A stretch of DNA of 64,000 nt from Dehalococcoidia bacterium (GCA_965207225.1 CBDBLV010000005.1:128001-192000); one strand, 5' to 3'. Shown: positions 2,405 through 37,930, numbered from the stretch's first letter. Notes: a model not told the origin generated them from the letters alone. Numbers and translations: made by a program.

Positions 2405-4081
2405 GACTTTTCTAATTCTCGGGAGTGGGGCGGTTAGCTCAGTTGGTGAGAGCGCTTGCCTTACAAGCAAGAGGTCACTGGTTCGAGTCCAGTACCGCCC
2501 ACCAGCGACTCCCATACTGCGAACTCCCCTGCCCAGGGCGACCTCCGCCAGGTCTGCCCCGCCTATGGGAGAGTCCTCCGGGGTAGGGATTGAGTAGTGG
2601 ATCGTCGCCCTGCCGGGCCTGACCTCGATCTCGTTGACGAAGGACCGGATGAAGGCCCGCGACTCGGTAATCTCGCTCTCCCTTAGGAACCTGCTCATGT
2701 CCAGGGCGAAGGCCGCTATGGTTTCCACCTTGTCCAGGGTCACCCTGCGCTTCGACAGCATGGCCCTGGCATCCTCGGCGGCGGCCTCCAGCTTCTCCTT
2801 GCGCTCCCGGTGCTCCTTGATGCGGTCCGTGGCGTCGGACATCTCGATCTCGGTGGTCTCGATGACCTGCCAGATGCGCCCCAGCCGCCGCTTCACCTCC
2901 TCCAGCTCCTCCTCGATGACCTTCAGCCGCTGGCGCTGCTCCCTGGCCACCCCGTCCATCTCCTCGTCCACGATCTTGACCAGTTCGGTGATGTTGGACT
3001 CGGTGAGGATGTTGTCCCGGATGTTTTCAACTATCAGGCCCTCGAACCGCTTGGCGTTGAGCCTGGGGGTGGTGCAGGTCCCGCTGCCCTTCTTGAGCAG
3101 GGAGTGGCAGACGTAGTAGGTGTACTTGCCGCCCTTGGCCTCGGCGGCGGTGAGGGCCTTCCTGCACCTCTGGCACTTGACCAGCCCGCTGAGCAGGTAG
3201 GGGCTGGAGGCCCGGCGGGGGTGGACGGCCTTGGGCGCTCGTGAGCGCAGCAGCCGTCTCACCTGGCGGTACTTGCTCTTGGAGATCAGGGCGGGGAACG
3301 CCTTCTCCACCCGCACCGGCTCCGCGCCGTCCCTGGCCTTGGTTCCCCACACCAGAACCCCCGTATAGGCTTCGTTGGTGAGCATGGTGTGGACGGCGCT
3401 CTTGAGCCACTGCTTGCCCCTGGGAGAGGGAACGCCCTCGGCGTTGAGGGTCTTGGTGATGTCCAGGGAGCTATGGCCCTTCAGCGCCATGTCGAAGACG
3501 CGCTTGACCACGGCGTCGGCGGGCGGGTCGGGCTCCAGCTTGGGGCGCTTCTTGGCCCCGTCCTGGACGTAGACCTTGCGGTAGCCGTAGGGGGCGAAGG
3601 TGGCGACCCAGAAGCCTCTCGACGCCGCCTCCCGCATTCCACGGGAGACCTCCTCTGCAAGATTGGCGCTGTAGAACTCGTCCACCGACTCGATGATGGC
3701 CTCCATGAGCTTGCCGGTGGGGGAGTCGTCGGCGTGCTCGGTGATGGAGGTGACGCGGATGCCCCTGCGTCTGAGCATGGACTTGAAGGCGACGGCGTGC
3801 TCCCGCTTGCGGGTGAATCTCGAGAATTTCCAGACCAAGATTTCCTGGAACGGGGCCTCGGGCTTGCCCGCCTCGTCCAGCATCTTCTGGAACTGGGGAC
3901 GGTCGGCGATGCGGCCACTCTCGGCTTCGTCCACGTACTCCCTTGCCACGACGTAGCCGTTCTTCTGGGCGTAGTCCCTGAGCGCCCGCATCTGGGCGGC
4001 CACGGACAGGTCCACGTCCTGGCGGTCGCTGGAGACCCTGGCGTAGAGGGCGACGGGTATCAACTCGGTTCGTTCACTCAT
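2339..4081 (-). CDS. Large serine recombinase (integrase of element A)
   Basis: YARVSS catalytic motif, SRFTR, recombinase domain, LLSGLVKCxxC..YYVC zinc ribbon, coiled coil, RBS AAGGAG before ATG 4081. The C-terminus reads antisense through tRNA-Val and tRNA-Arg. Confidence 0.95.
   Translation of the reverse strand: MSERTELIPVALYARVSSDRQDVDLSVAAQMRALRDYAQKNGYVVAREYVDEAESGRIADRPQFQKMLDEAGKPEAPFQEILVWKFSRFTRKREHAVAFKSMLRRRGIRVTSITEHADDSPTGKLMEAIIESVDEFYSANLAEEVSRGMREAASRGFWVATFAPYGYRKVYVQDGAKKRPKLEPDPPADAVVKRVFDMALKGHSSLDITKTLNAEGVPSPRGKQWLKSAVHTMLTNEAYTGVLVWGTKARDGAEPVRVEKAFPALISKSKYRQVRRLLRSRAPKAVHPRRASSPYLLSGLVKCQRCRKALTAAEAKGGKYTYYVCHSLLKKGSGTCTTPRLNAKRFEGLIVENIRDNILTESNITELVKIVDEEMDGVAREQRQRLKVIEEELEEVKRRLGRIWQVIETTEIEMSDATDRIKEHRERKEKLEAAAEDARAMLSKRRVTLDKVETIAAFALDMSRFLRESEITESRAFIRSFVNEIEVRPGRATIHYSIPTPEDSPIGGADLAEVALGRGVRSMGVAGGRYWTRTSDLLLVRQALSPTELTAPLPRIRKVWRAWRGSNPRPRPPQGRALSI
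2428..2504 (+). tRNA. tRNA-Val(TAC), integration target
   Basis: Anticodon arm CTTGC-CTTACAA-GCAAG and CCA end; its 3' end GCCCACCA is the att core. Confidence 0.96.
2497..2525. other. att junction 1 (tRNA half plus element A attP arm)
   Basis: Core GCCCACCAG 2497-2505; arm CCATACTGCGAACT (2512-2525) is the inverted repeat of AGTTCGCAGTACGG (17295-17308), 13/14 match. Confidence 0.9.
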
Positions 4082-4136
4082 TGGTTTCTCCTTGCTATCG
4101 ATCATACTATTCGGCGTCTCGAAGAGCAGAGGCTCC

Positions 4137-5231
4137 TCACCCCGCTGGACTGGCCCCCCAGCACTCCGTCAGGCCCTGTTCGGCGTCGATGGACGGCACC
4201 CCGGCGACCGGCTCCGCACTCACCAACGCCACGCCCGTATCGTGGAAGTCGAGCCCGGTTGGGGCCTGCGGCTTCTGTCCGGTCCGGACGTACTCAACCA
4301 CGGCCTCGACGCCAAGGGATGCCATGCGAACCGGATACTGCATCGCGGTGGCTCCGAGCTCACCGCTGGCGACCCTGCGCACGCCGGAACAGGCTCCGTC
4401 GATGGTGACGATCAGCACCTCGCGCTCCAGCCCCATGGAACGGAGCGCCGTGTATGCTCCCGCCGCCGCGGGTTCATTGATGGCGTACACCAGTCGGATC
4501 GACGGGTCCATGCGCATCAGGCGCTCCATCGCGCTGCGCCCGCCAGCTTCCGAGCCCATGGTCAATGCGCTGCCGGCGATGCGCGGGTCATCCTCGTCGT
4601 ACTTTCTTCCCGGGTCCTTGATATCGATGCCGAAGCCATGGAGGAAGCCCTGGTTGCGCATCACATCAACGGTGACCGGCATCTCGTAGCCGTCCAGCGT
4701 CACGATCCGCGTCCGGGCTGCCAGCGGCCCCAGCCTTTGCCGCGCCCAGAGGCCGATCAGTTCACCGGCCCGGAAGTTGTCGGTGGCGAAGGTTGCGTCA
4801 ACCGTGTCCGGCGGATCGAAGGGCGTGTCGAGGGCGATCACCAGCAGGCCCTCTGCACGCGCTTGCGCGACCGCCGGCTCTAGAGCCAGCGGGTCCGACG
4901 GGGTGATGAGGATGCCCTTCGCCCCCGCCGCGACCAGTTCTTCGATGGCCGCTATCTGCGCCTGTGCATCCCCGTCGTAGGCGCCGCTGTACGTGCGCAG
5001 CTCTACGTCAAGCTCCTCGGCGCGCTGAAGCGCCGCCTCGGCCATGGTGACGAAGAAGGGGTTGCCTTCGGTCTTGGTAATCAGTCCCACGAGCACAGGC
5101 TCGGACTCGTTGGAGCCGGATTCCTGGGCGCAACCGGCAAGAATCACGACGGCGAGGCAGAACAACACGGCGACGAGGGACGGCACCCTGGTGTACAGGG
5201 CCACTGGAGTGCAGCCATTCGTCTGACTCAT
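4137..5231 (-). CDS. Sugar ABC transporter substrate-binding lipoprotein (RbsB/FrcB-like), orphan
   Basis: Lipobox ILAGC; GLITKTEGNPFF, VIALDTP, ATDNFRAG, YAINEP and TIDG periplasmic-binding-protein motifs; no adjacent permease or ATPase. Confidence 0.88.
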   Translation of the reverse strand: MSQTNGCTPVALYTRVPSLVAVLFCLAVVILAGCAQESGSNESEPVLVGLITKTEGNPFFVTMAEAALQRAEELDVELRTYSGAYDGDAQAQIAAIEELVAAGAKGILITPSDPLALEPAVAQARAEGLLVIALDTPFDPPDTVDATFATDNFRAGELIGLWARQRLGPLAARTRIVTLDGYEMPVTVDVMRNQGFLHGFGIDIKDPGRKYDEDDPRIAGSALTMGSEAGGRSAMERLMRMDPSIRLVYAINEPAAAGAYTALRSMGLEREVLIVTIDGACSGVRRVASGELGATAMQYPVRMASLGVEAVVEYVRTGQKPQAPTGLDFHDTGVALVSAEPVAGVPSIDAEQGLTECWGASPAG

Positions 5232-5233
5232 CT

Positions 5234-5449
5234 TTATCCTTCCCTGTCCTGTCTCGTTTGGCGTGAACGCCGTCGCTGCATCCGCTCCGTGATGCGCCAC
5301 TCCCGTTCCTCCATGTAGAGGCGGATGGCCTCCCGGAGAACCTCGCTCACGGTGCGCTGTTCATCCGTCGCCACGTCCCGAAGCACCTGCGCCGTCTCGG
5401 GCGGCAGGGAGAAGGTGATGGTGTCGGTGTTCCTGGGTTTGACGGGCAT
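5234..5449 (-). CDS. CopG/ribbon-helix-helix DNA-binding protein
   Basis: TITFSLPPE..LRDVA..EQRTVSEVLREAIRLY RHH pattern. Confidence 0.8.
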   Translation of the reverse strand: MPVKPRNTDTITFSLPPETAQVLRDVATDEQRTVSEVLREAIRLYMEEREWRITERMQRRRSRQTRQDREG

Positions 5450-5663
5450 GGCTCTCTTCTTGATATGGCACTGCGTCTTACTCTCTATCATCTCGCAACC
5501 GCACTCCTTTCGTCAAGGGAGAAGTGGCGGGAATCGGTCCGGGCTACACCGCAGCGAGCAATCCGGCGGGGCCGGTTGAGGCGGTCGATACCCTTTCTGA
5601 AGCCTCCGGGAGCGCCTTCGGAGGCCGGTTTTGATGTCGTGGGGGTGTACAGGGATTTGCGTC

Positions 5664-6232
5664 AGTTGCAGAAATGCAAGTCGGGGGCACTTCCAAGCTG
5701 AAATCGAGCGAAAGGGAGGGGTGGTTGGCAAGTGAGCAAGCAATGTTTGGTCGGGGCGTGTTCCACGGATTCCGGCGGAGTTGCAGAAATGCAAGTCAGC
5801 AAGACAGCCACATGGGAGCCACGTCGCAGCAAGCGATGCCGATGCCCTCTGGGACTGCGACAATGTGATTGGTGACCGGTCACCCCGTCCAGAACATCGA
5901 AAAGGACGAGCATGAGGTTGTCGGCGATCCCGCCGGTTCTGCAACGAATTGTACTTTCGGGAGCTGTTGGAGGCTGACACGGTAAGTAGTGGGAATGGCC
6001 TTTTGTCCCCTATAGGAAGTCCTGGGAACGGCTCGGTGGGACAAGTCGCAGCATGTTGCGCAGTCTTCGGCGTCCGTGTGTGGGACGCAGTGGCCGGGCG
6101 GCTGTAGGCAGGAATCGTAGCTGAGGGATGACGGTGACGGGGGGTGTGATGCAGCGGGGAAGACGGCCTGACCGGTCGGTTCTGCAACGGATTGTACTTC
6201 TGAGGGCGGTAGCGGAGATGCGCGACCGGTCA
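5664..6232. repeat. Iteron-like repeat region (candidate origin)
   Basis: 19-bp exact direct repeat (5664-5682, 5779-5797), 23-bp direct repeat (5934-5956, 6177-6199) and TGACCGGTCA palindromes. Confidence 0.6.
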
Positions 6233-6302
6233 CGTGGGCAAGTTGTCCCAGCAAGGCTGCTGGGACAGCCCCTATTGGAAGGGTTCGGAACGGAAAAGGC
6301 GG

Positions 6303-8348
6303 TCATTGCGCAGGCTGATACGTCAGGGCCAGGGGCCTTCTGTGGAGGGAATACGGCGGGGGCAGTATCCATGCATCGCCCAGGACGCCATGCTCGGCAA
6401 GGTCCACAGTGTTCGATGTGACGATGGGCGCGTCGTCCTCTGTGTCGGCGATGTCGAGGAAGGCGGTCTCGCTGTCGGGGGACTCGAAGACGAAGAGCAC
6501 GTGGGGCAGGTGTCCCTCGTGATCCCGCTTTGCCCAGCCGCTCCGGAAGTAGCGCCGGTAGGACCTCAGGCGTTTGGGGATGCGTTTCGGCGTGGTGGCC
6601 CTCCGCTCGAACTCCAGCAGGTAGGGACGCCAATCGCCCTTGTACTCCAGGGTGAAGGAGGCGTCGGAGTGGATGGCGTAGGTGGTCTGGTCGTGGCGGT
6701 ATCCGATGCTGGAGCGGTGGGTGGGAAGCAGGTCGAACAGGTCGTGGTCCGGGGAGTTGGCGACCTCGGCGGAGAGGGCTGAAGCGAAGCCGACGACGCC
6801 GGCGTGGTGGCGCAGCTGGGCGGCCAGGGCGCGCAGGGCTGTCCCGACGTAGACGGAGGGCTTCCTGAGGGTGAGTTCTGGGCTCCAGCGGTCGAGGGTG
6901 AGGCCGACGGCGGCCCGGTCCCGTCGGGCCAGGTGTGTCAGCCCCTCGTCGGTGAGAACGAGCAGGGAGCCGTCCTCCCGCACGAGGCCGTGGTCACGGA
7001 GGGCGCGGAGCACCTGGTTGACCCGGCGCAGGGTGACGCCGCCCATGAGTCCCGCAAGCTGCTCACGGGTGCACAGGGGCCATGCCGACAGCAGGTCCAG
7101 GGCGTCCTTCCCGGCGCGGGTGAGTTGCGCCGAGAGAGATGACGTGAGTTGCTCGCCAGGCTCCGGCATGACGGCCTTCACACGGGAGGAGTAGAGGTCT
7201 TCGAGATCGGGCCTCGGGTTGTCGCGGAAGGACGAATGGGACGAGTCCAGCAGCCGATCCATCCACGCCAGGATGCTTCTCAGGGACGCGCCGGGGTCGA
7301 TAGGCACGGGCGGGTCATTGTCCCGTCCGTCTCCGCACTGTTGCCAGACGGTGCCGGTGTGGGCAAGGGCCAGAAGCTCCCCCTCCGTCGCTGCGAAGGT
7401 CCTGCGGTGCTCCGACGGGTCTCCCAGTGAGCGTATCGCCCTGCGGGTGGCCTGGTCGGCATGGGTCAGGACCAGGGTGACGAAGGGCCTCTGACGACTG
7501 GGGAGGCGCTCCATGCTCCTCAGGCGGTAGCGGAGTTTGGAGGTGGGCAGGGTCTGACCCTGGCGGATGATGCCGATGGAGCGGCCACCTGATAGCGTCA
7601 CCAGCATGTCGTAGGGGCCGCTGCGGTAGTGGTCTACCCGCACGAGCTTCTCATGCTGATCTGCGTCGGCGATCATGGCGGCGACGCGGTAAAGGACGGC
7701 CACGGCGTCCATGCGCTCGGCCAGCAGCCGGAACCACTGCTTGGACACCGGGTACTCGCTGAGGAAGTGATCCGTGCCGTGCTCGATCCGCCCTCCGGTG
7801 AGGATCCCCTGCTTCGTGGGGAAGTAGCGGCGCTGCGGGCGGGAGCCGAGAACGCTCAGGTGGTGCGGGACGGAACCCACCAGGCCCCGCTTGGCGAGGT
7901 TGCTCAGCCGGTCACGCAACGTGGAGGCGGGAACGCGCCCGAAGCGGGCCAACTCGTCCACGGTGGCCAGTGGCGCTGCGCACAGCAGCCGGAGGGCGTC
8001 CTCCAGGGCCTCGGACAGAGGACGCGTGCGCCGCTCGGCGACCGGACCGCCGTCGTCCTTCAGCCGCCTGGCCTGCGCCTGGAGTATCAGCCGCTCTTCG
8101 GCGTCCTCCAACGCCTCTGCGCTCTTGCCCACGCGCTCCAGCACCGCCCGGGGTATGGCCCGTCCCGTGTGGCCCCGGTCGAGGAAGCGCCACAGGGTGT
8201 GACGGGACACGCCGAGGGTCTCGGCCGCCTTGGGCCTGCCATGCAGCACGGCGTAGGTGCGCACGTAGTCCCGGACCGCCTCGTCGAGGTCCGCTCCGGC
8301 CTGCGCCGCGCCGTTCGATGCTTGTGTTCGTGTATCTGTGGCTACCAA
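6303..8348 (-). CDS. Replication-relaxation (Replic_Relax-like) protein with N-terminal HTH and duplicated wHTH-nuclease modules
   Basis: C-terminal HSDASF..YLLEFERRAT..KRLRSYRRY..HVLFV matches the Replic_Relax PD-(D/E)xK pattern; two wHTH segments; paralog of 25732-27429. Confidence 0.65.
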   Translation of the reverse strand: MVATDTRTQASNGAAQAGADLDEAVRDYVRTYAVLHGRPKAAETLGVSRHTLWRFLDRGHTGRAIPRAVLERVGKSAEALEDAEERLILQAQARRLKDDGGPVAERRTRPLSEALEDALRLLCAAPLATVDELARFGRVPASTLRDRLSNLAKRGLVGSVPHHLSVLGSRPQRRYFPTKQGILTGGRIEHGTDHFLSEYPVSKQWFRLLAERMDAVAVLYRVAAMIADADQHEKLVRVDHYRSGPYDMLVTLSGGRSIGIIRQGQTLPTSKLRYRLRSMERLPSRQRPFVTLVLTHADQATRRAIRSLGDPSEHRRTFAATEGELLALAHTGTVWQQCGDGRDNDPPVPIDPGASLRSILAWMDRLLDSSHSSFRDNPRPDLEDLYSSRVKAVMPEPGEQLTSSLSAQLTRAGKDALDLLSAWPLCTREQLAGLMGGVTLRRVNQVLRALRDHGLVREDGSLLVLTDEGLTHLARRDRAAVGLTLDRWSPELTLRKPSVYVGTALRALAAQLRHHAGVVGFASALSAEVANSPDHDLFDLLPTHRSSIGYRHDQTTYAIHSDASFTLEYKGDWRPYLLEFERRATTPKRIPKRLRSYRRYFRSGWAKRDHEGHLPHVLFVFESPDSETAFLDIADTEDDAPIVTSNTVDLAEHGVLGDAWILPPPYSLHRRPLALTYQPAQ

Positions 8349-8533
8349 TCCGACGCCTCAACTTCCTCATGTCCCAACATCCCATCTTGAACGGGAAACT
8401 GCTCGCATGTAATGCCTTGCAAGCCGTTGTTATGGAGCGGGATTTGTGGTAGCGGTGGGGCCGTGATCACGATGCCCTGAGCCGCCGCCAGGGTGACGCG
8501 GCATTGAGGATGCGGGGCTTGCTTGATGGCGGT

Positions 8534-8773
8534 TCATCCGCGGGACCCCTTCTCTGACGGCGGCTTCGTGGACGTCGACGCTGCCTTGGGTATCTCACCC
8601 CGCAGATGGGCGCGGACGATCATCCGGGCCAGGATGCGCAGCCCGCGCTGGAGCTGAGCTCGCTGCTCGGCGGTGTAGGGCTTCATCGGCCTGTCGATGG
8701 AGGGATCGGGAGCGTCTCCTCCGCTCCTCTTCCTTTGCCCGTTCCTTGTATCTTCCCTATTGCTGTCTCTCAT
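8534..8773 (-). CDS. Small 'GLRILAR' protein (element backbone)
   Basis: Clear homolog of 32470-32694 (MRDS...Y[T/S].E.R..L..GLRILAR); shared upstream DNA GACTGTGACCCATGAGAGACAGCA. Confidence 0.65.
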   Translation of the reverse strand: MRDSNREDTRNGQRKRSGGDAPDPSIDRPMKPYTAEQRAQLQRGLRILARMIVRAHLRGEIPKAASTSTKPPSEKGSRG

Positions 8774-9102
8774 GGGTCACAGTCGCAGCGGCGGTTCGTC
8801 GGGCCGCTGGCCTCTCGTCTACAGGTGTCCTGGGTGGCCGCCGGGCACAGACGGACCGGCTGGCGGGCTACCGCCCGGTCTTTACGTCAGTGTGGGCGAC
8901 CGGAATGGCGAGCGTTATCCCCTGGAAGGGACTACATCGGTGTAGTCCCCTGGAAGCCATTACGCCGATGTAGCCAGTGCTGGTGAGCCGCAATGAGCCT
9001 CGGGCTGAGGCTGGGGAGGCCGCGGCGTCACTGGGGTTGTCGCTCTCCCTGTCGAACTCAGCGCCAAGATGTTCACCTCCTGCGGTTTGCGTCGCCCTTG
9101 CC

Positions 9103-9432
9103 AGAGAGTGTGAACGACCGGGACGCCGAAGAAGACCTCACGCATGGTGGCGCCACGGAGGGTCTCCAATCGGGGAGCCGTTTCTTGCAGTGTTGGGGTG
9201 TACAGGAAATGGAGTTTGGTGACGAAGTGGTCGAAGTCGTGATGTCGTAGCTGAATCAGGGGTAAATCGGCCCCTATGGGCTGTAACCGGCAAGCAATCT
9301 GTTGAAAGGCCCCAGTTCGGTCTCCGATGACAAAGGAGGGCTTGAGGCGGGGGTGTCTACACCGGAGAAAATCGACGGTCCGATGACAAAAGCTGCCCAA
9401 AAATGAGCTTGAGGCGGGGGTGCATTACGCTG
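9103..9432 (-). other. Conserved non-coding backbone module, copy 1
   Basis: Colinear inverted homolog of ~31720-32050. Confidence 0.75.
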
Positions 9433-10370
9433 GGATGGACGCCGGACGGGACCGGGTGCGGTTCCCGGCGGGATGAGCCGCCCAGGCGGCTGGAGCTTCG
9501 ATGTCAGCGCCAACTCGTTTACCTCCCTGCGATTTGCCGCGAACCGTTGGATCGCAGCGCCTGCAAGAGAGTGTGAACAATGGACATGCGATTCGGAACC
9601 TCCCACGGGCAGGTGCGGAAATGCACCTGTCCGTATGCAGGTGCGAACATGCACCGCCTCCCGAGGGCTTGCGAAGCCTAGGACACCTCCCGCCGCAGGA
9701 AGGGCGAATGGACATGCGGGTCAGGATGCGCAGCGTCTCTCGCCGCTTTACGGTGTGCGCCGCCGTCGATCCATTCGAGGACGTGGCGACCCTCTTTGAT
9801 GGCTTCCTTCTATCGGCCCCTCTCATCCCGCTCCTCCGTGTCGGTCTCCGGCGGGATTGCAGACTGGCCTCGCCGCCGCTGACACCGGACTTCCGGCGTG
9901 CTTTAAGCCAGTCTGCGGGCCTGAAAGAGCGAGCGGTATCACTCGGAGGGGAGTACATCGGTGTAACGGGCGGCAGCCCGCTGATGCGTCAGCGCATGAG
10001 CGTGAGATTGGCAGAGGTGATGTCAGGGGGCAGTACAGGGAAACGAACCCGTGTACATGTTGTACATCTGGGCGGTTTTCAAAGCTGACGCGGAGCGAAT
10101 CCAACAGGTTAAGGACGACAGCGGCGAACACTTTTTGTCAGGGGCCGGTTGCGACGGGGTGGTTCATGCACCCTAGCTGAAGCTGTACATGTTGTACACA
10201 GGGAAGGTAGGGACGCCGGTACATCAGCGGTACATCTTGGGCCAAGAGGTGAGACAGACGATGGATGAGAGGCCCTATCGTCGAAGATGGAGGCGATGCC
10301 GGAGCATTGAAGCCATTTCTGTGTATGTCATATAATGCCGATAGTGCAACTCTCTTGAAGGGGGAACATC

Positions 10371-10673
10371 ATGGAAGTCAAGAAGAAGAGGCTCACGCTG
10401 GACTTGGAGGCAACGTTCCAGCGCAGACTGAAGGTGGTTGCCGCCCTGAAGGGAGTGACCATGCGCCAGTACTGCTTTACCGCTATAGACAGGGAACTGG
10501 CGCAGGACGAGGCGCTGGGCATCGCCGGTCCTGTGTCCGGTTGGTCTGACGCCGAGCGGTTCGAGGAACTCCAGAAGAAGTACTTCGGGGACAGGGTGCT
10601 CCCCGGCAACGGAGCCGACTTCATTCGGGAAGCGCGGGAGGCCAGGGATGCCCGGATGGAGGGACTAGGGTGA
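10371..10673 (+). CDS. Antitoxin (RHH-like) of PIN TA pair 1
   Basis: KRLTLDL...RRLKVVAALKGVTMRQY RHH pattern; overlaps the downstream PIN gene by 4 nt. Confidence 0.75.
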   Translation: MEVKKKRLTLDLEATFQRRLKVVAALKGVTMRQYCFTAIDRELAQDEALGIAGPVSGWSDAERFEELQKKYFGDRVLPGNGADFIREAREARDARMEGLG

Positions 10674-11113
10674 GCACATTCGTGGTCGTGGACGCCAGCC
10701 TTGCCTTCAAGTGGCTGGTACGAGAAGAGCACACCGACAAGGCTCTGGCGATGCTTCGGGCCTGGCAACACGAGGAGATTAGACCGGCCGCTCCCCACCT
10801 GCTGCCCTTCGAGGTGGCGAACGCCCTTCACAAGCGGGTGAACCGGGGCGAGTTGAGCGTCGAGGGGGCGGTTGACCTAATCGGAAACCTGCTCACCTCC
10901 CAGGTCGAGTTGCATCAGCCGTGGAATCTCCACGGAAGGGCGTTGGAGATGGCAAGCAGATATGGTCAGGCCGCCGCCTACGACGCTCACTACCTGGCGC
11001 TCGCGGAGAGTCTTGGCTGCGACTTGTGGACCGCCGACGAGAGGTTCCGTCAATCCGTCGAGGACGCCGACGGGCGCGTACATTGGATTGGAGAGTTCGT
11101 TGTCCCAGAGTAG
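10670..11113 (+). CDS. vapC: VapC/PIN-domain toxin
   Basis: VVDASLAFKW, EVANAL, YDAHYLALA and WTAD PIN motifs. Confidence 0.9.
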   Translation: MSTFVVVDASLAFKWLVREEHTDKALAMLRAWQHEEIRPAAPHLLPFEVANALHKRVNRGELSVEGAVDLIGNLLTSQVELHQPWNLHGRALEMASRYGQAAAYDAHYLALAESLGCDLWTADERFRQSVEDADGRVHWIGEFVVPE

Positions 11114-11167
11114 CCGAATGGGAGTTGCCGTCCTTCTGCCTAGTCCTTCGGTAGGGCGCAGACACAA

Positions 11168-12484: not shown

Positions 12485-12497
12485 AGGAGGTCGGATA

Positions 12498-18207: not shown

Positions 18208-18228
18208 AAAATCTAGTAGCTTAGTTTC

Positions 18229-25324: not shown

Positions 25325-25329
25325 GGCAC

Positions 25330-28720: not shown

Positions 28721-28853
28721 GGTCTTTTGCGCCTATTTCAGCTTTGCCGCGACCGGCTTGTCGTTACCCAAGATCTTTGAGCCAGGTTACCCACGAACAT
28801 TGAGCCACCCTGAACGCCGATGATACGGATTATGACAGGATGCTATCGGCGGT

Positions 28854-29648: not shown

Positions 29649-31225
29649 AGCGTAACTCCTTCGGTTGGGTGATGGCCGTTGACCAGGGCGAAGACGGAGC
29701 CGGGCCTGGCGAAGCGCCCCGGCGGTATGAGGTCGGCAAGGGGCGGCGCATCCTGCTGCTCCAGGGCTTCAACCAGGATGCGCTCGACGCGGTGCACGTC
29801 GATGAGGTCCACGTCCAAGGCCTTGCGGCAGGCGTCGTTCAGCCGGTCGGGGGTGTAGCGCTGGGCGAGGCGGAGCAGCTTGTGTCCCTGCCGCACCTTG
29901 GCCCAAGGCGTGGGGCCTTCGAAGAGCCGGTCGGCGAAGGCGGCCACCGCCTCTCCCAGCTCCGCCGCGCTCTGCTTGATCTTGTCGGGCCCTCGCAGGG
30001 TGTAGGCGATGAACTCCTTTGGGTAGTCGTCGGTGTCGGTGGAGCGTTTGCCCCTGGGCTGACGGGGATGGACCTTGATCAGCTTGCCCCGGTGGTAGAT
30101 GCGCACCAGCTTGCTGTCCAGCGCGATCTCCACCTGCTGCCCCGGAGGGCACAGGGCCGACGGCACCGAGTAGAGGGCGTGCTGGCAGGTCACGTGGTGG
30201 TCGCGCTGCACCTTGGCGTTGCGCCAGCGGGTAACCTCGTAGGGATCGCCGTCCCAGGGCAGCAACGTCTGGCGCTCCTCTGTGTCGAAGACCTCCACGG
30301 GCTTGCGCCTGGTGGTGCCGTGCACCCGCTGTCCGGCCACCTCACGGCACCAGTGGAGCGCTTCCTTCCGCATGTGAGGCAGGTCCCTGAAGGAGGCTCC
30401 CTTGAAGAAGCGCTCTCTCACGTACTGGACTCCCCGCTCCACCTTGGGCTTATCCCTGGGGTGGCGCACCCGGGCCGGGTCGGTGATGAAGCCCCGGCGC
30501 TGCGAGTACTCCAGGAAGCCCCTGGTCAGCCTGGGGTGCAGGGCGTCGGCCCCGGCCACCGCCGCCGGGAAGTTGTCGATGACCAGGTACTTGGGTATGC
30601 CGTCGAAGAAAGCCCAGGCCGCCTCCAGTCCGGCGACCACGTCCTCCAGCTTCTGCCCGTGGGTGGGCCAGACGAAGCTGTGCCGCGAGTAGGCCAGCAC
30701 CACGATCAGCGCCCACACCGTCCGGCGGCGTCCCGTCTCCGGGTCCTCCAGCGGCCCCAGCCGACCGAAGTCCAGCTCCGCCACCTCGCCCGGAGGACTC
30801 TCCTCCATCCGCACCGTCCGAAGACTGCGGCCTCGCCAGTTGCGGCGGGCCACGAAGCGCTGTAACGACGAATAGGGCACATCGCAGCCCCGCTCCAAGA
30901 GCAACTCCCGGATGCGGGTCAGTTGCAGCCGGTCCCCGATGAGCCACTGCTGAATCTGGTCGGCCCAGGGGGACAGCCTCTCCTCTATGGGCATCTTGGT
31001 CTGCCGCGGTCCCGCACGGCCGATGGCCGCCAGCTTGCTCAGCTGCTCCTCGCTGGGACCCGGTCCGTCCCGGGACAGCCCCAACCTCTCCGCCGAGGAG
31101 ATGTATTTGACCACCGTGTTCCGGGACAGGCCCGTCCCAGTCGCTATGTGGCGCTGGCTCTCTCCAGCCTGCCAGCGCCGGATGACTTCTTCTATCTCCA
31201 CTCTGAGTACCTCCTTGTAGGCCAT
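29645..31225 (-). CDS. istA: IS21 transposase
   Basis: N-terminal HTH, ELDFG, IDN, KPKVERGV and RVHGTT. Confidence 0.95.
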   Translation of the reverse strand: MAYKEVLRVEIEEVIRRWQAGESQRHIATGTGLSRNTVVKYISSAERLGLSRDGPGPSEEQLSKLAAIGRAGPRQTKMPIEERLSPWADQIQQWLIGDRLQLTRIRELLLERGCDVPYSSLQRFVARRNWRGRSLRTVRMEESPPGEVAELDFGRLGPLEDPETGRRRTVWALIVVLAYSRHSFVWPTHGQKLEDVVAGLEAAWAFFDGIPKYLVIDNFPAAVAGADALHPRLTRGFLEYSQRRGFITDPARVRHPRDKPKVERGVQYVRERFFKGASFRDLPHMRKEALHWCREVAGQRVHGTTRRKPVEVFDTEERQTLLPWDGDPYEVTRWRNAKVQRDHHVTCQHALYSVPSALCPPGQQVEIALDSKLVRIYHRGKLIKVHPRQPRGKRSTDTDDYPKEFIAYTLRGPDKIKQSAAELGEAVAAFADRLFEGPTPWAKVRQGHKLLRLAQRYTPDRLNDACRKALDVDLIDVHRVERILVEALEQQDAPPLADLIPPGRFARPGSVFALVNGHHPTEGVTL

Positions 31226-31719
31226 CGCGGCACCTCCTTATCAAGTGCTGCAATGGTCTAAGCTGGGGCGCTCAGGGTGGCTCAAAGACCCTGGTTATCT
31301 GGCTCAATGTTAGTGGGTATTGTGGCTCAATGTTCCTGGGTATTGACACGGCTGACACGCCACCCACGAAACTCAATCTCCTGTACAGCCCCATTACTTC
31401 CAAAGGCAGTCCGTTTTCAGACGACCTCGGAGGGTGCATCACGAGCGATGCACGCTATGGATAGTATCCAGCCATTTTTCGCTTGTTCACACTCCCCTGC
31501 GTGCACTGCTGTCCGGTGAACCGTGCTCCAGCGCTTATCTTTGCCCGGCTTCCACACCAGCTCTTTCCGGCGGGCCATGAGTCTCATGAGGTACATAATC
31601 CCCACGTCCCAGCTGTCCTCGATGCCGTGTTCGGTCGTCTTGATTGCCCTCGGTTCCTCACCGGAAACTCGTTCCAGACCCTGAGCCCGTCAAGTCCGTG
31701 TTTGTCGTGACCTCTCGCC

Positions 31720-32050
31720 CGGCGTAACGCACCCCCACCTCAAGCGCGCTCTTTGGCCGCCTATGTCATCGGACCGTCGATTTTCGCCCGTGCACACACC
31801 CCCACCTCAAGCCTCTTTCTGCCATTGCCGACCGAACTCCGCCCTTTCAACAAATTGGTCACCGTTCACCTCCTGTAGAGGGGGATTTACCCCTGTTTCA
31901 GCTACGAAACCCCGACTCAGACCGCTTCGTAACCAGACTCCATTTCCTGTACACCCCCAATACTGCACGAAACGGGCCTCCGATAAGTGGGTATGGAAGG
32001 CGCCACCATGCGTGGGGTCTTTTTCGGCGTCTGATTTGTTCACACTCTCT
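31720..32050 (+). other. Conserved non-coding backbone module, copy 2
   Basis: Homolog of 9103-9432; internal CCCCCACCTCAAG direct repeat. Confidence 0.75.
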
Positions 32051-32091
32051 TCCAACTCTATTGAAGCGCTGAACCGAGAGGGGCCGGAACG

Positions 32092-32358
32092 ATGAACCCA
32101 CGGAAGGCCAACGAGCGTAGGGATCACCGAAAGCGCCCGGTGCGGGCGGTCGTCCGGCTCGACGCGGCGGCCCTCTGGAAGCGTTTGGCCCTGCTGAACC
32201 GCTCCCAGTCCTGGCTTGCCCGGGAGGTCGGGATAAGCCCTGGCTATCTCTCCATGCTGATCAACGCGGGGAGAGCCCCATCAGGTCGCATCCGGGAGCA
32301 GATGCAGAAGGCTCTCGGAGCGGACGACTTCAACGACCTTTTCGGAGTGGAGGAATAG
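32092..32358 (+). CDS. XRE-family HTH regulator
   Basis: SQSWLAREVGISPGYLSMLINAGRAPS. Confidence 0.85.
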   Translation: MNPRKANERRDHRKRPVRAVVRLDAAALWKRLALLNRSQSWLAREVGISPGYLSMLINAGRAPSGRIREQMQKALGADDFNDLFGVEE

Positions 32359-32469
32359 CGATGACGCAACCTGACGTTACGTCCGCCCTCACCGAGTCGG
32401 CGGCCCCACTCCCACACTTGTAAACAAGAGGCCAGCGGCCCGATAGAGAAGCCGCTGTGACTGTGACCC

Positions 32470-32694
32470 ATGAGAGACAGCAGCGAGAAAAGAACACGGA
32501 AGAGACCCGCAGGCCGGGAGCTTGAACGCGCCCTTGCCCACTCCATGCCGTCCTATTCTCCGGAGCACCGCAGGGCGATCCTCAAGGGGCTGCGCATCCT
32601 GGCCCGTGTCGCCATCCGCTCATACATGGAAGAGAAGGCGGAAGCATCATCCCGGTCCGAAGCTGTAGGAGGCGGCAGCGAGGAGGAGATCTGA
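32470..32694 (+). CDS. Small 'GLRILAR' protein (element backbone)
   Basis: Homolog of 8534-8773. Confidence 0.65.
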   Translation: MRDSSEKRTRKRPAGRELERALAHSMPSYSPEHRRAILKGLRILARVAIRSYMEEKAEASSRSEAVGGGSEEEI

Positions 32695-32910
32695 TGGGAT
32701 GCGAGGGGAAGCGGCAGACGCCTCTGCCATGTCGGTCGGCGCCAAATGGATGAGCCAACCTGTGCCGCCGTCCCCAGCGGTCGGGAGGCCACGGGAGACC
32801 GGCATCGATGTCAATGCTAAGTTAGATTTGACCCTTTTCCGCTAAGTTAGAACTGACCCACCTTGTCGTTAAGTCGCCTCCTTTCTGGCAAGCAAGAGTG
32901 CCTCTGGGAT

Positions 32911-33714
32911 TTAGACGTCGCCGGAGCTAGCGGCTTCAGGCGATGTCGATAGCAGTTGATGGGAGGCGAAGAGTCCGGCCTGCCTCTTGCCTTTAAGCCG
33001 GTAGCTCTCGCCTCGGATGTTGAGGACGTGGCTGTGGTGCAGCAGCCGGTCCAGGATGGCCGAGGCGATGACGGTATCGCCCAGAAGCTCACCCCACTCG
33101 GCGAAGCCCTTGTTGGAGGTGAGGATGATGCTGCCCCGCTCATAGCGAGCCGACACCAGGGTGAAGAAGGCGGTGGAGGCGTCCCGGTCGTAAGGCCAGA
33201 TGCCGAACTCGTCCACGATGAGTAGCTTGGGCGACAGGTAGACCCGCATGCGCCGTTGGAGGTTGTTCTCCACCCTGGCCTTCCTCAGGTCCTCCATCAG
33301 GTCGTAGGCTCGGACGAAGTAGGCCCCCTGGCTCTTCTCGATGGCCTTGAGCGCTAGGGCCACCGCCAGATGGGTCTTGCCCACACCTGGCGGTCCCAGG
33401 AGCAGCAGGTTGGTGGCTTCGGCGACGAAGGACAGGCCGGCCAGTTCCCGCACCTGTCGCTCGTCGATGGAGGGCTGAAACGAGAAGTCGAACTGCTCCA
33501 AGGTCCGGTGGAAGGGGAGGTGAGCCAGCTTCGTCCTGGTGGACATGTACCGCTCCTTCCGGGCGGCCACTTCCACGCCGAGTAGCTCTGCCAGCATCTC
33601 GGGGTAGGTCAGTTTCTTGGTGGCCGCAGCGTCCAGGGAGTTGTCCAGGGCTTCGACGGCCTGCTTGAGGCCCAGCGTCTCCAGGTGCTGGCGAGCCTGT
33701 TCCAGCGCGATCAT
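32911..33714 (-). CDS. istB: IS21 helper ATPase
   Basis: GPPGVGKTHLA, IVDEFG, LTSN, ILDRLLHH and GESYR. Confidence 0.95.
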   Translation of the reverse strand: MIALEQARQHLETLGLKQAVEALDNSLDAAATKKLTYPEMLAELLGVEVAARKERYMSTRTKLAHLPFHRTLEQFDFSFQPSIDERQVRELAGLSFVAEATNLLLLGPPGVGKTHLAVALALKAIEKSQGAYFVRAYDLMEDLRKARVENNLQRRMRVYLSPKLLIVDEFGIWPYDRDASTAFFTLVSARYERGSIILTSNKGFAEWGELLGDTVIASAILDRLLHHSHVLNIRGESYRLKGKRQAGLFASHQLLSTSPEAASSGDV

Positions 33715-34946
33715 CGCCCACCTCCCACCGCTGCCAACTCGTACACCTCCAGGGAGCGGCGCTCCACCTGGCCCACAGGGATCTGCACCGCCACGGCTTC
33801 CTTACGAGGACGATCATCGCCGCCGGGCAGTCCGTCCCACTGGCCCGGCAGTGTGAGGCGCTGACCGGTCCGCTGGGCTTGGGGATGCACCGCCAGCCGC
33901 ACGTCGCCCGACCAGACCTCCACCGTACCGGCCCGCACACCCACCTGGACCGTCGAACCCGCCCAGCTCCAGGGCACGCCGTAGCGAGACCTCTCCCAGT
34001 GGACGTAGCCGTCCCTGGCCACCTTCCGCTCCTCCCGCATGTAGGGCGCAAGGCCCGAACGCGGCGGCAGGCTGCCCAGGTGGGCGAGCTCCTCAGCCAG
34101 CATCTCTCGGGGGACCCGGTGCGTCGTCCCATGGACTCGCCGATTGGCCACCGCATCGCACCACTCCAGGGCCTGGCGGTTCATGTCTGCGTCGTCGGTG
34201 AAGCGGACACCGGGCCACAGGTTGCCCCGGACGTACTTCACGCCGCTCTCCACCTTGCCCTTCGTCTGCGCTCGGTAGGGTCGGCACAGACGGAGGTCGA
34301 AGCCCATTCGCAGTGAGAAGTCCAGCATCCGGCTGTTCCACTCCGGCCTGCCCTCCCTGTCACGCCCCAGGACCACCACCTTGGCGTTGTCGTACAGGCA
34401 GCGGCGGGGAACACCACCGAAGTACTCGAAGGCGTTCACGTGGCACCTGATGAAGGTCGCCACGTCGGCGCGCCGGACGAACTCCACGTAGATGGTCCGA
34501 GACCAGCTCAGCACCATCACGAAGGCCCAGACCCGGTGCTTGCGCCCGTCCTCTCCGACATAGGCGAAGCTGCCCCAGTCCACCTGTGCCTGCTCGCCTG
34601 GCGCCGTCTCGAACCGCACCGTCGCACGGGGCTGACGCGGCCGACGCCGAGGCCGCACGTAGTTGGTCAGCGTCGGATAGCTGCCGTCGTAGCCCAACTC
34701 CCGGATCTCCCGCAGCAGCACCACGCAGTTGTCCACTCCCGCCGACAGCCGACCATCTATGTGACCCTTGTATGGGTCCAGCTTCGACCCCTGCTTCTCT
34801 CGCCGCTTGGCCTTGGGCACCTCGTCGGAGCGCACGTACTTGCGCACGGTGTTCCGGGAAATCCCCAACTCCCTCGATATCCCTCGGATCGAGCTTCCAT
34901 CGCCCTTCAACTCGTATAACTCTCTCACTAACCCACCTCCTATCAT
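33711..34946 (-). CDS. istA: IS21 transposase
   Basis: RFETAPGEQAQVDWG, YDN, KGKVESGV and RVHGTT. Confidence 0.95.
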   Translation of the reverse strand: MIGGGLVRELYELKGDGSSIRGISRELGISRNTVRKYVRSDEVPKAKRREKQGSKLDPYKGHIDGRLSAGVDNCVVLLREIRELGYDGSYPTLTNYVRPRRRPRQPRATVRFETAPGEQAQVDWGSFAYVGEDGRKHRVWAFVMVLSWSRTIYVEFVRRADVATFIRCHVNAFEYFGGVPRRCLYDNAKVVVLGRDREGRPEWNSRMLDFSLRMGFDLRLCRPYRAQTKGKVESGVKYVRGNLWPGVRFTDDADMNRQALEWCDAVANRRVHGTTHRVPREMLAEELAHLGSLPPRSGLAPYMREERKVARDGYVHWERSRYGVPWSWAGSTVQVGVRAGTVEVWSGDVRLAVHPQAQRTGQRLTLPGQWDGLPGGDDRPRKEAVAVQIPVGQVERRSLEVYELAAVGGGR

Positions 34947-35603
34947 TTGACTTGCTGCACCTCCTAATCGGTTTCCCGACGAAGATGCGTCCGCTATCGG
35001 GGTGGGTCAATTCCAAATTAGCGCTACTGGGTCAGTTTAGAGTTAGCACTAACATCGAGACCCCGGAGCGCCGCCGGCAGACCCCGCCGGACGGTTGACA
35101 TGTCACGGTGCCGCAGCCCCCTGCCAGCCCTGCGCCAGCACCCCTTCCGAGGGATTTAGAGTGCCGTTTCCGCCCCGTCCCGCACCCCCACCTCCATCGC
35201 CTTATGCGCCCCGTTTTCCCACCGAGCAGCCGATTTAGCACGGCGTCGTGCCCTCCGACATCCAACGAAATTCGCTGGATTCGACCGGAACCCGCCCTTT
35301 CAAGAAAGTGTTCACTCTTTCCGTCCGATAGAGGGACGATGTGGCACTGTGCCAGCTACGGAATCGCCTATTCCGCCGCTTCCCCGACAAACTCAAACTC
35401 GTGTACAGGCCCCCCACTTGGCGGGAGACCCCCGATCCGGCAGTCGGCTGGAAGGGATACCCTTGCAGGGGATGTTCCTCACCTCGCCGGGCGACTGGGG
35501 AGCAGGGACCGCCGGGGGGCTTGGACGAGCCCTGCTTGTTTCCGCCGCCAAAAACGACCCTTTCAGGTGGCGGCTGTTCACGTGAGAATTTGACCGACGA
35601 GTC

Positions 35604-35632
35604 TTGACTCGTTCATGTGTGAAGGATAGAAT
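35604..35632 (+). promoter_or_regulatory. Sigma70 promoter of the antitoxin-vapC-integrase unit
   Basis: TTGACT-17 nt-TAGAAT, overlapped by repeated TGACTC/GAGTC motifs. Confidence 0.6.
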
Positions 35633-35674
35633 GACTCGTAGAGCCTCTATTTGTGACTCATCAGGGAGTGTGAC

Positions 35675-35938
35675 ATGAACCAATTGACGGTAAGAGGATT
35701 CGACGACGAACTGAGCGCGGCTATGCACGGCCTCGCCAGGCGGGAGGGAATCTCCCTGAACCAAGCTGCGCTGAGGCTTCTGAGGAGGGGAGCGGGGATA
35801 ACGGATAGCAAGAGAAACCCCAACGCCATAGGGTCTGCATTGGACGACCTGTTCGGTGTGTGGAGTCAGGATGAGGCGGACAGCTTCAACCGCGCTATTG
35901 AGGTCTTCGGGACGGTGGACGAGGCAGCGTGGGCATGA
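35675..35938 (+). CDS. RHH antitoxin (FitA/VapB-like), TA pair 4
   Basis: QLTVRGFDDEL...AR.EGISLNQAAL.LL; ATGA overlap with vapC. Confidence 0.85.
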   Translation: MNQLTVRGFDDELSAAMHGLARREGISLNQAALRLLRRGAGITDSKRNPNAIGSALDDLFGVWSQDEADSFNRAIEVFGTVDEAAWA

Positions 35939-36333
35939 GGATTCTGCTGGACTCGAACGCCTACTCCGCGTTCATGCGGGGCAACGAGGAAGTGAGAGCC
36001 CTCATACAGGACGCTGAGGAAGTGCTGTTCTCCGCTATTGTTGTAGGCGAGCAGCTTTTCGGATTCCGGCAAGGGGCGTACTACGAGCGGAACCTTGCGC
36101 AGCTTCGATCCTTCCTCGAACGTCCTTACGTGTCCTTCGTTCCCGTGGGTCCGGTGACCGCCGACCGTTACTCACGTGTGATGACCGCATTGAAGGCTAA
36201 GGGGCGGCCCATTCCCACAAACGACGTCTGGATTGCGGCCCACGCGATGGAAACGGGCGCCGACCTGGTATCGGCGGATCGCCACTTCGAGCACGTTGAC
36301 GGGATAGTGTGGACACCGATAACAACCAACTGA
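35935..36333 (+). CDS. vapC: VapC/PIN-domain toxin
   Basis: LLDSNAYS, GRPIPTNDVWIAA and SADRHF motifs. Confidence 0.92.
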   Translation: MRILLDSNAYSAFMRGNEEVRALIQDAEEVLFSAIVVGEQLFGFRQGAYYERNLAQLRSFLERPYVSFVPVGPVTADRYSRVMTALKAKGRPIPTNDVWIAAHAMETGADLVSADRHFEHVDGIVWTPITTN

Positions 36334-36349
36334 AACCAAGGAGGACGAC

Positions 36350-37930
36350 ATGAAGAAGAAGCACCTACAGCCGCTAACGCCGGCGGCTTTATATGCCAGG
36401 GTGTCCAGCGACCGCCAGGACGTGGACCTGTCCGTGGCAGCCCAGCTCAGGGCGCTCAAGGAGTACGCAGAGGCCAACGGCTACTCCGTGGCCCGCGAGT
36501 ACATCGACGAGGCGGAGAGCGGCCGCATCGCAGACCGCCCCCAGTTCAAGATGATGATCGAGGAGGGCAGCAAGCCCAAGGCCCCCTTCCAGGTCATTCT
36601 CGTATGGAAGTTTTCGAGGTTCACAAGGAAGCGGGAGCACGCCGTCGTCTTCAAGTCCCAGCTGCGGCGCAAGGGCATCCGCGTGGTGTCCATCACCGAG
36701 CAGGCCGAGGACAACGCCACCGGCAGGCTGCTTGAGGGCATCATCGAGACCGTGGATGAATTTTACAGCGAGAATCTGGCGACGGAAGTTGTCCGGGGCA
36801 TGCGGGAGGCCGCGTCACGGGGCTTCTTCCTGGGTTCGAAGGCCCCCTTCGGCTACCGGAAGATCAAGGTGCAGGACGGGGTGAAGGAGCGCCCCTCGCT
36901 GGAGGTGGACCCGGCCACCGCTCCTGTAGTGAAGGAGATATTCGAGAAGTCCCTGGGCGGCCACGGCCTCAAGGAGCTGTGCAAGGAGCTGAACGAGCGG
37001 GGCGTCACCAACCGGGGCAAGCGCTGGTACAAGGGCGGACTCCACTACGTGCTGAGGAACGAGGTGTACACCGGCACGGCAGTGTGGGGACTCAAGGGCA
37101 AGAACGAGAAGTCCCAGGACCCTGTGCGGGTGGAGGGAGCGTGGCCCGCGCTGGTGTCGCGGGAGTTGTTCGACGAGGTGCAGCAGGCGATGAGCGAGCG
37201 TGCTCCGAAGGTGCAGAGGCCCGCGAGAGTGGGAAGCCAGTATCTGCTGAGCGGGCTGCTCAAGTGCGGGGTGTGCGGCAGGCCCTACTCGGCCCAGGGA
37301 GCCAAGAGCGGCCAGTTCGCCTACTACATCTGCGGCACCCTGTTCAGGGAGGGCGCGGGGACGTGCAGCGCCGGTTATCTGAACGCCCAGAAGCTGGAGA
37401 CCTTCGTGGTTGAGAAGATACGGGAGCGTATCCTCAACGAGGAGACCATCGTGGCGCTGGTGCAGCTGGTGGCGGAGGAGATCGACGCCATGGCCGGAGA
37501 GCTTGCCGATAGGCTGGATGTCGTCGAGGCGGAGCTAGAGGACGTGAGGAAGCGCCTTGGGAAGCTCTACGAGGCCATCGAGACCAGTGAGTTGACCCTT
37601 GAGGTCCTGTCGCCCCGCATCATGTCCCTGAGGCACCGCGAGGAGCAGCTGGAGGCTGCGCGGGAGGACGCCGAGACCCGGCTGGAGCAGCGCAGGGTTG
37701 CCCTTCCCGACACCGAGGAGATCGTGGAGTACGTGGCGGACTTCCGAGACTTCCTGAAGGACGGGACGATACCGGAGAAGAAGGCGCTCATCCGCAACTT
37801 TGTGGAGGGCATCGAGGTGGTGGGAGACGAGGCGACGCTGACGTACACGGTCCCCATGCCGAGCGACGGCGTGACCAGCGAATCGGCCTCGGTTCTTGAT
37901 TTCGTCAAGTCCAGCCCACCAGGGGGATAG
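36350..37930 (+). CDS. Large serine recombinase (integrase of element B)
   Basis: YARVSSDRQDVDLS (close paralog of 2339-4081), zinc ribbon, coiled coil; ends two codons past the att core. Confidence 0.95.
   Translation: MKKKHLQPLTPAALYARVSSDRQDVDLSVAAQLRALKEYAEANGYSVAREYIDEAESGRIADRPQFKMMIEEGSKPKAPFQVILVWKFSRFTRKREHAVVFKSQLRRKGIRVVSITEQAEDNATGRLLEGIIETVDEFYSENLATEVVRGMREAASRGFFLGSKAPFGYRKIKVQDGVKERPSLEVDPATAPVVKEIFEKSLGGHGLKELCKELNERGVTNRGKRWYKGGLHYVLRNEVYTGTAVWGLKGKNEKSQDPVRVEGAWPALVSRELFDEVQQAMSERAPKVQRPARVGSQYLLSGLLKCGVCGRPYSAQGAKSGQFAYYICGTLFREGAGTCSAGYLNAQKLETFVVEKIRERILNEETIVALVQLVAEEIDAMAGELADRLDVVEAELEDVRKRLGKLYEAIETSELTLEVLSPRIMSLRHREEQLEAAREDAETRLEQRRVALPDTEEIVEYVADFRDFLKDGTIPEKKALIRNFVEGIEVVGDEATLTYTVPMPSDGVTSESASVLDFVKSSPPGG
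37891..37922. other. att junction 3 (element B attP arm plus core)
   Basis: GGTTCTTGATTTCGTCAAGTC-CA-GCCCACCAG. Confidence 0.9.

Follow-up and report, generated by a model that had tools for sequence, protein, structure and literature searches.

Apparent stacking of two serine-integrase islands with opposite polarity at one tRNA-Val gene in a Dehalococcoidia bacterium

The tRNA-Val(TAC) locus and its attachment sites

The DNA considered here, called the window, is a 64-kb stretch from a Dehalococcoidia bacterium (GCA_965207225.1, CBDBLV010000005.1:128001-192000), whose metagenome-assembled genome (MAG) consists of five contigs and is called G000 below. Behind a tRNA-Val(TAC) gene, the last of a Val-Leu-Arg-Val cluster predicted by ARAGORN, the window carries two elements, A and B, each with its own large serine recombinase (LSR), IntA and IntB (Table 1). 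The two elements are most probably independent LSR islands that were inserted at one tRNA crossover and belong to lineages of opposite polarity.

The 9-mer GCCCACCAG is found three times in the window (2497, 17318 and 37914), always on the plus strand and nowhere else. Mirror symmetry around these copies was scored on 30-base flanks with the centre set between the second and the third C. The element attachment site (attP) of A, composed of the 30 bases left of 17320 and those right of 2499, is symmetric at 20/30 positions, and so is attP of B (left of 37916, right of 17320). The outer hybrid pairing gives 9/30, the pairing at the A/B junction 11/30 and that of the tRNA with the right flank from 37917 on 4/30, while 200,000 random pairings from the window yielded 7.8±2.5 with a maximum of 19. 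Since the A arm matches the A arm and the B arm matches the B arm, the three sites represent two separate imperfect palindromes with one shared centre. The crossover would lie at this centre, between the two C residues; identity alone permits any site within the 9-bp repeat. At the middle junction the right arm of A (P_A, 17295-17320) adjoins the left arm of B (P'_B, 17321-17346), the right arm of B (P_B) encodes the C-terminal residues of IntB, and the final five bases of the tRNA (CACCA) now come from element A.

Both integrase frames cross the core, in opposite directions. IntA, on the minus strand, runs antisense through tRNA-Val and reads the core as Gly-Gly, and IntB on the plus strand reads it as Pro-Pro. 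As a consequence, product length depends on the state of the element: IntA has 588 amino acids (aa) when integrated and a predicted 551 aa in the circular form, and IntB 526 and 540 aa, respectively. Residues 18-496 of IntA and 13-463 of IntB (about 450-480 residues) align to the CcrB model (E 4e-40 and 3e-49), and both proteins match resolvase-domain families in NCBIfam. IntB, the only one of the two that was searched against solved structures, matches the catalytic domains 3guv and 3bvp and aligns over residues 26-437 to the 500-aa integrase 9iu2. A YARVSSDRQ stretch near the N terminus of both contains what we take to be the catalytic serine. The proteins thus combine the features of LSRs: a catalytic domain, a C-terminal span (judged on the overall alignment, with recombinase domain, zinc ribbon and coiled coil taken together), an imperfectly palindromic attP of about 50 bp and an outward-shifted outer motif. 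Ccr recombinases are their best NCBIfam matches, but the scores of 138 and 168 bits stay far below the cut-off of 900 for CcrA/B/C, and their target is a tRNA, not rlmH.

IntA and IntB are 55% identical over 500 aa. Identity amounts to 78% over the ~160 N-terminal residues and to 44-48% beyond them, or 67% in the N-terminal and 44% in the C-terminal half, these bins being positional splits and not domain calls. A previous reading of the window, made from the sequence alone, had described three sites forming two palindromes around the same CC, read in opposite senses by the two integrases, and both observations held. The near-identical N-terminal halves that the same reading reported are, by the above values, considerably more diverged.

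Polarity and target choice in the integrase family

The two integrases are members of a widespread Dehalococcoidia family that targets tRNA 3' ends. Its attP sites are imperfect palindromes of ~50 bp, spanned by the integrase gene, whose inner core copies the tRNA end, so that the tRNA is rebuilt upon insertion. In 63 element arms (26 of B, 28 of a subtype designated A' and 9 of A) the motif GAAC lies at +22..25 outward from the centre, and CACCAG stands beside the centre in all P-type arms; the arms of A and B, which the sequence-only reading considered completely different, have these positions in common. In six occupied tRNA half-sites GAAC is located at +16..19, inside the T-loop. The tRNA T-arm may hence act as the host-type half-site, with the same motif placed 6 bp further out in the element arms. 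By analogy, this displacement could correspond to the zinc-ribbon spacing shift known for phage serine integrases, which is 5 bp in the available part of the source (for LI integrase, the distance of the zinc-ribbon motif from the centre is 5 bp shorter in attB than in attP; Rutherford et al., 2013, PMC3783163) and would be 6 bp here.

An A-type integrase of G000 (C5:589542-591216), 64% identical to IntA, adjoins a tRNA-Gln(TTG) that ends in GCAGCCA, which indicates that family members use other cores matched to their own tRNA. In other genomes the same applies to Ala, Arg, Glu and Leu tRNAs.

An inverted T-arm-like motif (GGACTCGAAC) is present at host-type spacing in 26 of 80 B right flanks in other genomes. 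Flanks with this motif (loci L040-L104; for example L080 and L081 around 4070) often follow CACCT, not CACCA, and two loci of one genome have 19 bases in common at such a flank before they diverge. No tRNA was predicted at the right flanks carrying the motif.

Polarity was compared across the family. At the B-type loci of about 50 other Dehalococcoidia MAGs all 80 integrases read rightward through the core, 78 of them with a recognisable arm. None of 91 B-type integrases adjoins an antisense tRNA, and in 85 of these copies both arm and core are canonical. The 105 full-length A-type integrases compared, a set partly sampled as neighbours of B, comprise 60 that adjoin an antisense tRNA (17 tRNA species), 26 that adjoin a reversed B arm and 19 that adjoin something else. 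In an integrase tree that included 40 of the 91 B sequences and took four distant LSRs of G000 as outgroup, the B sequences form a single clade (support 1.0), sister to an A' clade of 25 sequences (0.974); the other 82 A-type sequences, IntA of the window included, branch outside B and A'. The A' and B lineages have a common integrase-proximal arm encoding the same C-terminal peptide, and only the inner core differs. In small complete genomes of the class, homologues with 43-45% identity directly follow tRNA-Ala or tRNA-Asn and are encoded on the reverse strand.

The tree and these neighbourhoods indicate that the antisense arrangement is ancestral and that B is a derived, flipped lineage nested in the A radiation. 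Being a single clade within this radiation, B carries the inverted core as a derived trait, and since this inner core faces the other way with respect to the integrase, insertion of B elements at the common core occurs in the opposite direction. The proposal that one lineage flipped its core, put forward from the window alone, is thus borne out by a polarity that is lineage-wide.

A further locus of G000 (C2:150903-152110) combines an N-terminally truncated integrase and an A'-type outer arm with a B-oriented inner core, and adjoins a B left arm. Either the core was flipped a second time here, or an A' integrase gene recombined with a B attP.

Arrays, relatives and the formation of the stack

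The left flank of the locus is conserved across the genus. In the closest relative, G008 (93%), tRNA-Val(TAC) is directly followed by a B-type left arm and a 25.9-kb element ending in a B-type integrase (79% identical). In G007 the tRNA is directly followed by a HicB/HicA-like flank, which is also found at the right junction of G008, and the site is thus empty. An integrase that has 97% identity to IntA and an identical arm class is located at tRNA-Ala(CGC) in G137, where the element ends 18.7 kb away against an A'-like and not a B arm. Of the empty, A-only and B-only states proposed for a survey of relatives, the empty and the B-only states are found at tRNA-Val(TAC), and A is found at tRNA-Ala with another partner. 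Together with the arm pairing, these genomes support the earlier view of two separate elements stacked at one tRNA.

With IntB as query, 36 matches were retrieved from G000, where the copies comprise 19 full-length A-type and 12 full-length B-type integrases (31), two broken genes and two fragments. A scan for cores with recognisable arms returned 57 candidate sites, of which 47 were kept after filtering. Six tRNAs of this genome are occupied (Ile-GAT, Ala-TGC, Lys-CTT, Val-TAC, Val-GAC and Met-CAT), including five of the six that end in CCCACCA. The longest arrays contain five elements (C5:1911997-1990338), and the islands add up to ~0.4-0.5 Mb of the 4.03-Mb symbiont genome (sum of junction-to-junction spans, two of the ten spans having uncertain ends). 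Eighteen junctions have a recognised arm on either side: ten are of the A-type/B kind (one of them with the truncated integrase at C2:150903), seven are B/A-type and one is A'/A, and no junction has the same arm class on both sides.

One five-element array ends in a B-type integrase (C5:1988772-1991990) that has no CACCA after the arm and is fused in frame to a P-loop protein encoded downstream; the open frame amounts to 1072 aa. In G000, tRNA-Ile(GAT) and tRNA-Ala(TGC), which usually lie together in the rRNA spacer, are 68 kb apart (C1:177682 and C1:245981), with an A' element after each.

Four A' copies have integrase genes that are 98-100% identical, and the element-wide identity is 100% and 96% where compared. 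Irrespective of the left neighbour (tRNA-Ile, a B arm or sequence other than tRNA), this identity sets in exactly at the core. The divergence of an integrase does not follow that of its neighbour (r=0.10 for n=21 pair comparisons; r=-0.19 for n=15). Elements therefore insert singly and not as fixed composites. The four copies, at C1:177753, C4:735693, C4:892737 and C5:2032346 of G000, represent a burst of one A' subtype; two of them show no difference along 10.7 kb, as far as a contig end, so that assembly collapse may account for part of it.

The same data bear on the view that A and B form one 35.4-kb composite with a hybrid attP (B arm, core and A arm), recombined by mixed IntA/IntB tetramers in the manner of CcrA/CcrB, the site at 17320 being internal. 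Such a composite, once circularised, would be expected to show what is observed at seven loci of G000 and one of G008, namely IntB and an A-type integrase converging on one core, and the similarity of the first ~160 integrase residues would suit mixed tetramers. The outer hybrid is nevertheless symmetric at 9/30 positions only, compared with 20/30 for the A-A and B-B pairings, B stands alone in G008, A has another partner in G137, adjacent integrases diverge independently and the identity of the recent A' copies begins at the core and not earlier. A single composite element is thus very improbable and, on account of arm symmetry, separate occurrence and missing co-divergence, was rejected.

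Still less credible is a chance repeat or an assembly artefact, in which two similar elements of the metagenome bin would have been wrongly joined at the middle site. The MAG does hold many near-identical repeats in its five contigs, and public contigs break at the core. Public data for the locus were available from seven runs as assembled contigs and were compared over 1900-18400, where they mix many related elements and break at 17320/17321; a link of 2500 to 17320 is absent among the 15 contig joints listed (15 of 76), an observation that is neutral with respect to excision. One 946-base public contig, however, covers 16399 to 17344 without a mismatch, nine further A-type/B junctions are present in G000 (counting the case with the truncated integrase) and more in complete chromosomes of other genomes, and within the window the 9-mer occurs at the three junctions only.

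How two independent islands of opposite polarity come to be stacked can be pictured as follows. The tRNA half-site and the core would be enough as a target, the right half of attB being apparently unconstrained. If only these two are needed, the left junction of a resident element (tRNA/P') would still look free to an integrase of the other arm class, while the attL of the resident would be locked for its own class. Coiled-coil autoinhibition, modelled for the attL and attR sites of phage LSRs in the available part of Rutherford et al. (2013, PMC3783163), may provide this lock and would, as proposed here, explain the avoidance of same-class stacking. With attL closed to its own class and open to others, newcomers would insert beside the tRNA and neighbours would always differ in class.

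For the window, this model suggests tRNA-proximal insertion of an element of a different class, with B first and A later, and this order is cautiously preferred. The hints in favour of B as the first arrival are weak: three insertion sequences in B and none in A, the B-only occupancy of tRNA-Val(TAC) in G008, and right-hand flanks at the array ends of G000 that have no consensus. Both orders leave identical junctions, and the near-identical A' copies as well as the mutated right array end at C5:1990338 are compatible with either.

The alternative order, accretion at the far end, is possible and clearly less probable. Here A would have come first and B would then have used P_A and its flank, with the A arm as half-site, so that arrays grow away from the tRNA. 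Of the B left junctions, 10 of the 14 listed in G000 and 10 of 26 in five other genomes adjoin an A-type right arm, and two different B elements have near-identical A' copies on their right, in line with this order. It would, on the other hand, require that a P-type arm (GAAC at +22..25) is accepted where the family uses T-arm spacing (+16..19). B also stands directly on the tRNA in G008 and at 4 of the 26 B left junctions of other genomes, and the distribution of insertion sequences between B and A speaks against A as the older element.

Several points weigh against two independent islands and tRNA-proximal stacking, and they concern polarity, array structure and assembly. The root of the integrase tree depends on four LSRs that are only 23-29% identical, and a truncated integrase of the A' clade (C2:150903-152066 in G000) has B-type polarity, so that the flip has an exception. 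At each of the six occupied tRNAs of G000 it is an A-type element that adjoins the tRNA, which fits a symmetric alternation of the two classes less well and is equally consistent with B added at the far end of A. The lack of same-class junctions (permutation P ~9e-5) comes from 18 junctions that are not independent events, and B/B junctions exist at 2 of 80 B loci in other genomes. Arrays of integrase genes with 86-100% similarity are prone to misassembly in a five-contig MAG, the public contig bridging 17320 extends only 24 bases on one side, and no excision product or circle was seen in the public assembled contigs, which break at the core. The crossover is placed by symmetry and not by mapped breaks.

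The right flank has to be added to these points. The empty site had been predicted to read tRNA-CCA followed by the sequence from 37922 on; the relatives do not continue in this way, and G007 and G008 read tRNA-CCA followed by the HicB/HicA-like flank. A search with the 37922+ flank matched one relative (G007), only from window position 38800 on, and the flank from 37923 to 38800 has no match in G007 or G008. Synteny returns at 38800 for G007 and at 40215 for G008. About 880 bp of flank have probably been replaced in G000. As the B arm ends exactly at 37916, the mismatch is no argument against the junction, and as the flank resembles neither relative, the ancestral right half-site of G000 is not recoverable.

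A bolder version of the stacking model, which we regard as doubtful, treats A and B as a leap-frogging pair: with attL locked to its own class only, A and B islands could stack without limit, provided that they alternate. If so, the core inversion in B would be the novelty through which a sister lineage gained access to a shared target, and every internal junction would be a hybrid of two element-type arms. Internal elements would be freed only by mixed A/B tetramers or as composites, and the arrays would represent a natural system of cooperating yet orthogonal integrases. The sequence-only reading had proposed that B, with the A arm in place of the tRNA half-site at its left junction, may be excised only after A or jointly with it.

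Known systems, cargo and neighbouring sequence

As described in the available part of McMurdie et al. (2011, PMC3146451), the ssrA islands of Dehalococcoides, with the serine integrase DsiB, come from the same bacterial class and resemble element A in having a reverse-strand serine recombinase (~540 aa in DsiB) that adjoins attL. The frame of DsiB, like that of IntA, overlaps the 3' end of the target RNA gene, its stop codon being set by the integration state, and the DsiB islands are likewise stacked in tandem behind the target and carry cargo and no transfer genes. Element A fits this layout and element B does not, given that B-type integrases never adjoin an antisense tRNA. The DsiB islands target the single-copy ssrA with a 20-bp repeat, whereas ordinary tRNAs are used here, with 17 species across the family and a 9-bp repeat; the transfer-messenger RNA gene of G000 (C1:198772-199125) is followed by no recognised arm. 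Of the six-gene module of the DsiB islands (DsiB, DsiA, RecF-like, ParB, Mom and a large protein), DsiA, RecF-like, ParB and Mom were not detected in A or B, and in searches for small serine recombinase, ParB and Mom the open reading frames (ORFs) of A and B had no NCBIfam or PHROGs match, a result that remote homologues could escape. For the B lineage, with its inverted core and far-end integrase, and for the rule that neighbours differ in class, no counterpart was found in this part of the DsiB report. The comparison is one of layout and not of sequence relatedness.

Staphylococcal cassette chromosome (SCC) elements also form composite arrays by stacking, behind a single conserved gene at its 3' end. 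Their target is rlmH and each element carries a co-directional recombinase pair, compared with one recombinase per element here. Cassettes of this kind (CcrAB/CcrC) are similar in being LSR-borne, non-phage elements, a comparison drawn in the available part of PMC3146451.

Phage LSRs (LI/A118, phiC31 and Bxb1), in the parts of the account by Rutherford et al. (2013, PMC3783163) that were available, have a similar domain span, an imperfectly palindromic attP and a non-palindromic central dinucleotide that sets orientation. Unlike in these systems, the elements described here are islands and not phages, attB is a tRNA end, the integrase gene spans attP and no directionality factor has been identified. 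Tycheposons (10.1101/2020.12.28.424599, available in part) also pile up at a tRNA, and in the model proposed for them integration occurs at the tRNA-proximal end and older remnants lie further out. They differ in using tyrosine integrases, with another chemistry, and in duplicating tens of tRNA bases, according to the same part of that source.

No description of sister serine integrases with opposite polarity at one tRNA core, or of arrays in which adjacent elements consistently belong to different classes, was found in the literature library searched. Compared with the DsiB islands, as far as these are covered here, the use of ordinary tRNAs as targets, the derived lineage with its inverted core, the neighbour-class rule and the extent of the expansion are new.

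Serine integrases are usually described at protein-coding genes or intergenic sites. The present family is a large natural radiation at tRNA 3' ends, in which the T-arm would serve as the host half-site. It provides a natural experiment, with sister lineages that have the same core and target, opposite orientation and diverged arms, and it supplies dozens of natural integrases with readable attP/attB pairs. Such pairs raise the questions of whether one half-site and the central dinucleotide are sufficient, whether the attL of another class can act as attB, and whether mixed tetramers operate on hybrid sites.

The coordinates of the elements and their genes are collected in Table 1. This is the one stack examined for cargo, and its islands appear to bring restriction or defence genes and insertion sequences. 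The cargo block of A has a lower GC content and looks like a restriction or defence cluster. Element B encodes a methyltransferase-like protein, and its VapC-like gene follows, with an overlap, an 87-aa ORF (35675-35938, plus strand) in the usual antitoxin position, without a family match. Among the ORFs of A and B no match to PHROG structural or replication families was obtained; a prophage interpretation was dropped for this reason, and both are read as cargo islands.

Table 1. Features of the tRNA-Val(TAC) locus in window coordinates
Feature	Position	Strand	Basis or remarks
tRNA-Val(TAC), left half of attachment site	2428..2504	+	ARAGORN, sequence
Core copy 1 (GCCCACCAG), junction tRNA/P'_A, predicted crossover 2499/2500	2497..2505	+	sequence, symmetry
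IntA, large serine recombinase	2339..4105	-	conserved part 2486-4105
Element A, 14.8-kb island, integrase at tRNA-proximal end	2500..17320		arm symmetry; related A element in G137
Cargo block of A, GC 0.53-0.57	11168..17195	+	NCBIfam, PADLOC, composition
C5-cytosine methyltransferase (A)	11168-12484	+	
Z1/helicase-like protein (A)	14053-16203	+	
Two more cargo ORFs of A, 530 aa and 331 aa	within 11168..17195	+	
Junction P_A/core copy 2/P'_B	17291..17346	+	
Element B, 20.6-kb island, integrase at tRNA-distal end, three insertion sequences	17321..37916		arm symmetry; B-only G008
ISAs1-family transposase (B)	21624..22760	-	NCBIfam NF033564, E 7e-125
IS21-family transposase (29645-31225) and IstB helper (28854-29648) (B)	28854..31225	-	
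Second IS21-family transposase (33711-34946) and IstB helper (32911-33714) (B)	32911..34946	-	
VapC-like PIN toxin gene, just upstream of IntB	35929-36333	+	NCBIfam VapC matches, all under curated cut-offs
IntB, large serine recombinase	36350..37930	+	
B right arm (37891-37916) and core copy 3, junction P_B/flank	37891..37922	+	
Right flank with 185-aa ORF (38031-38588), third-position GC (GC3) 0.40	37923..38800	+	not homologous to empty-site flank of relatives

Just past the attachment site, positions 37923-40200 represent a variable spot of low GC content (0.48-0.51). The 185-aa ORF in this region has no family match, and a 473-aa ORF has a homologue in G007 (61% aa identity) behind the HicB/HicA-like pair and is absent in G008. 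Further downstream, 40855-41246 and 41446-41840 are copies of ~390 bases, each of which matches the same stretches of G007 and G008 with 80-88% identity, and both relatives also carry such a pair. Upstream of the tRNA cluster (1500-2000), two segments of ~100-120 bases recur at many places in G000 and its relatives with 75-97% identity and resemble small dispersed repeats.

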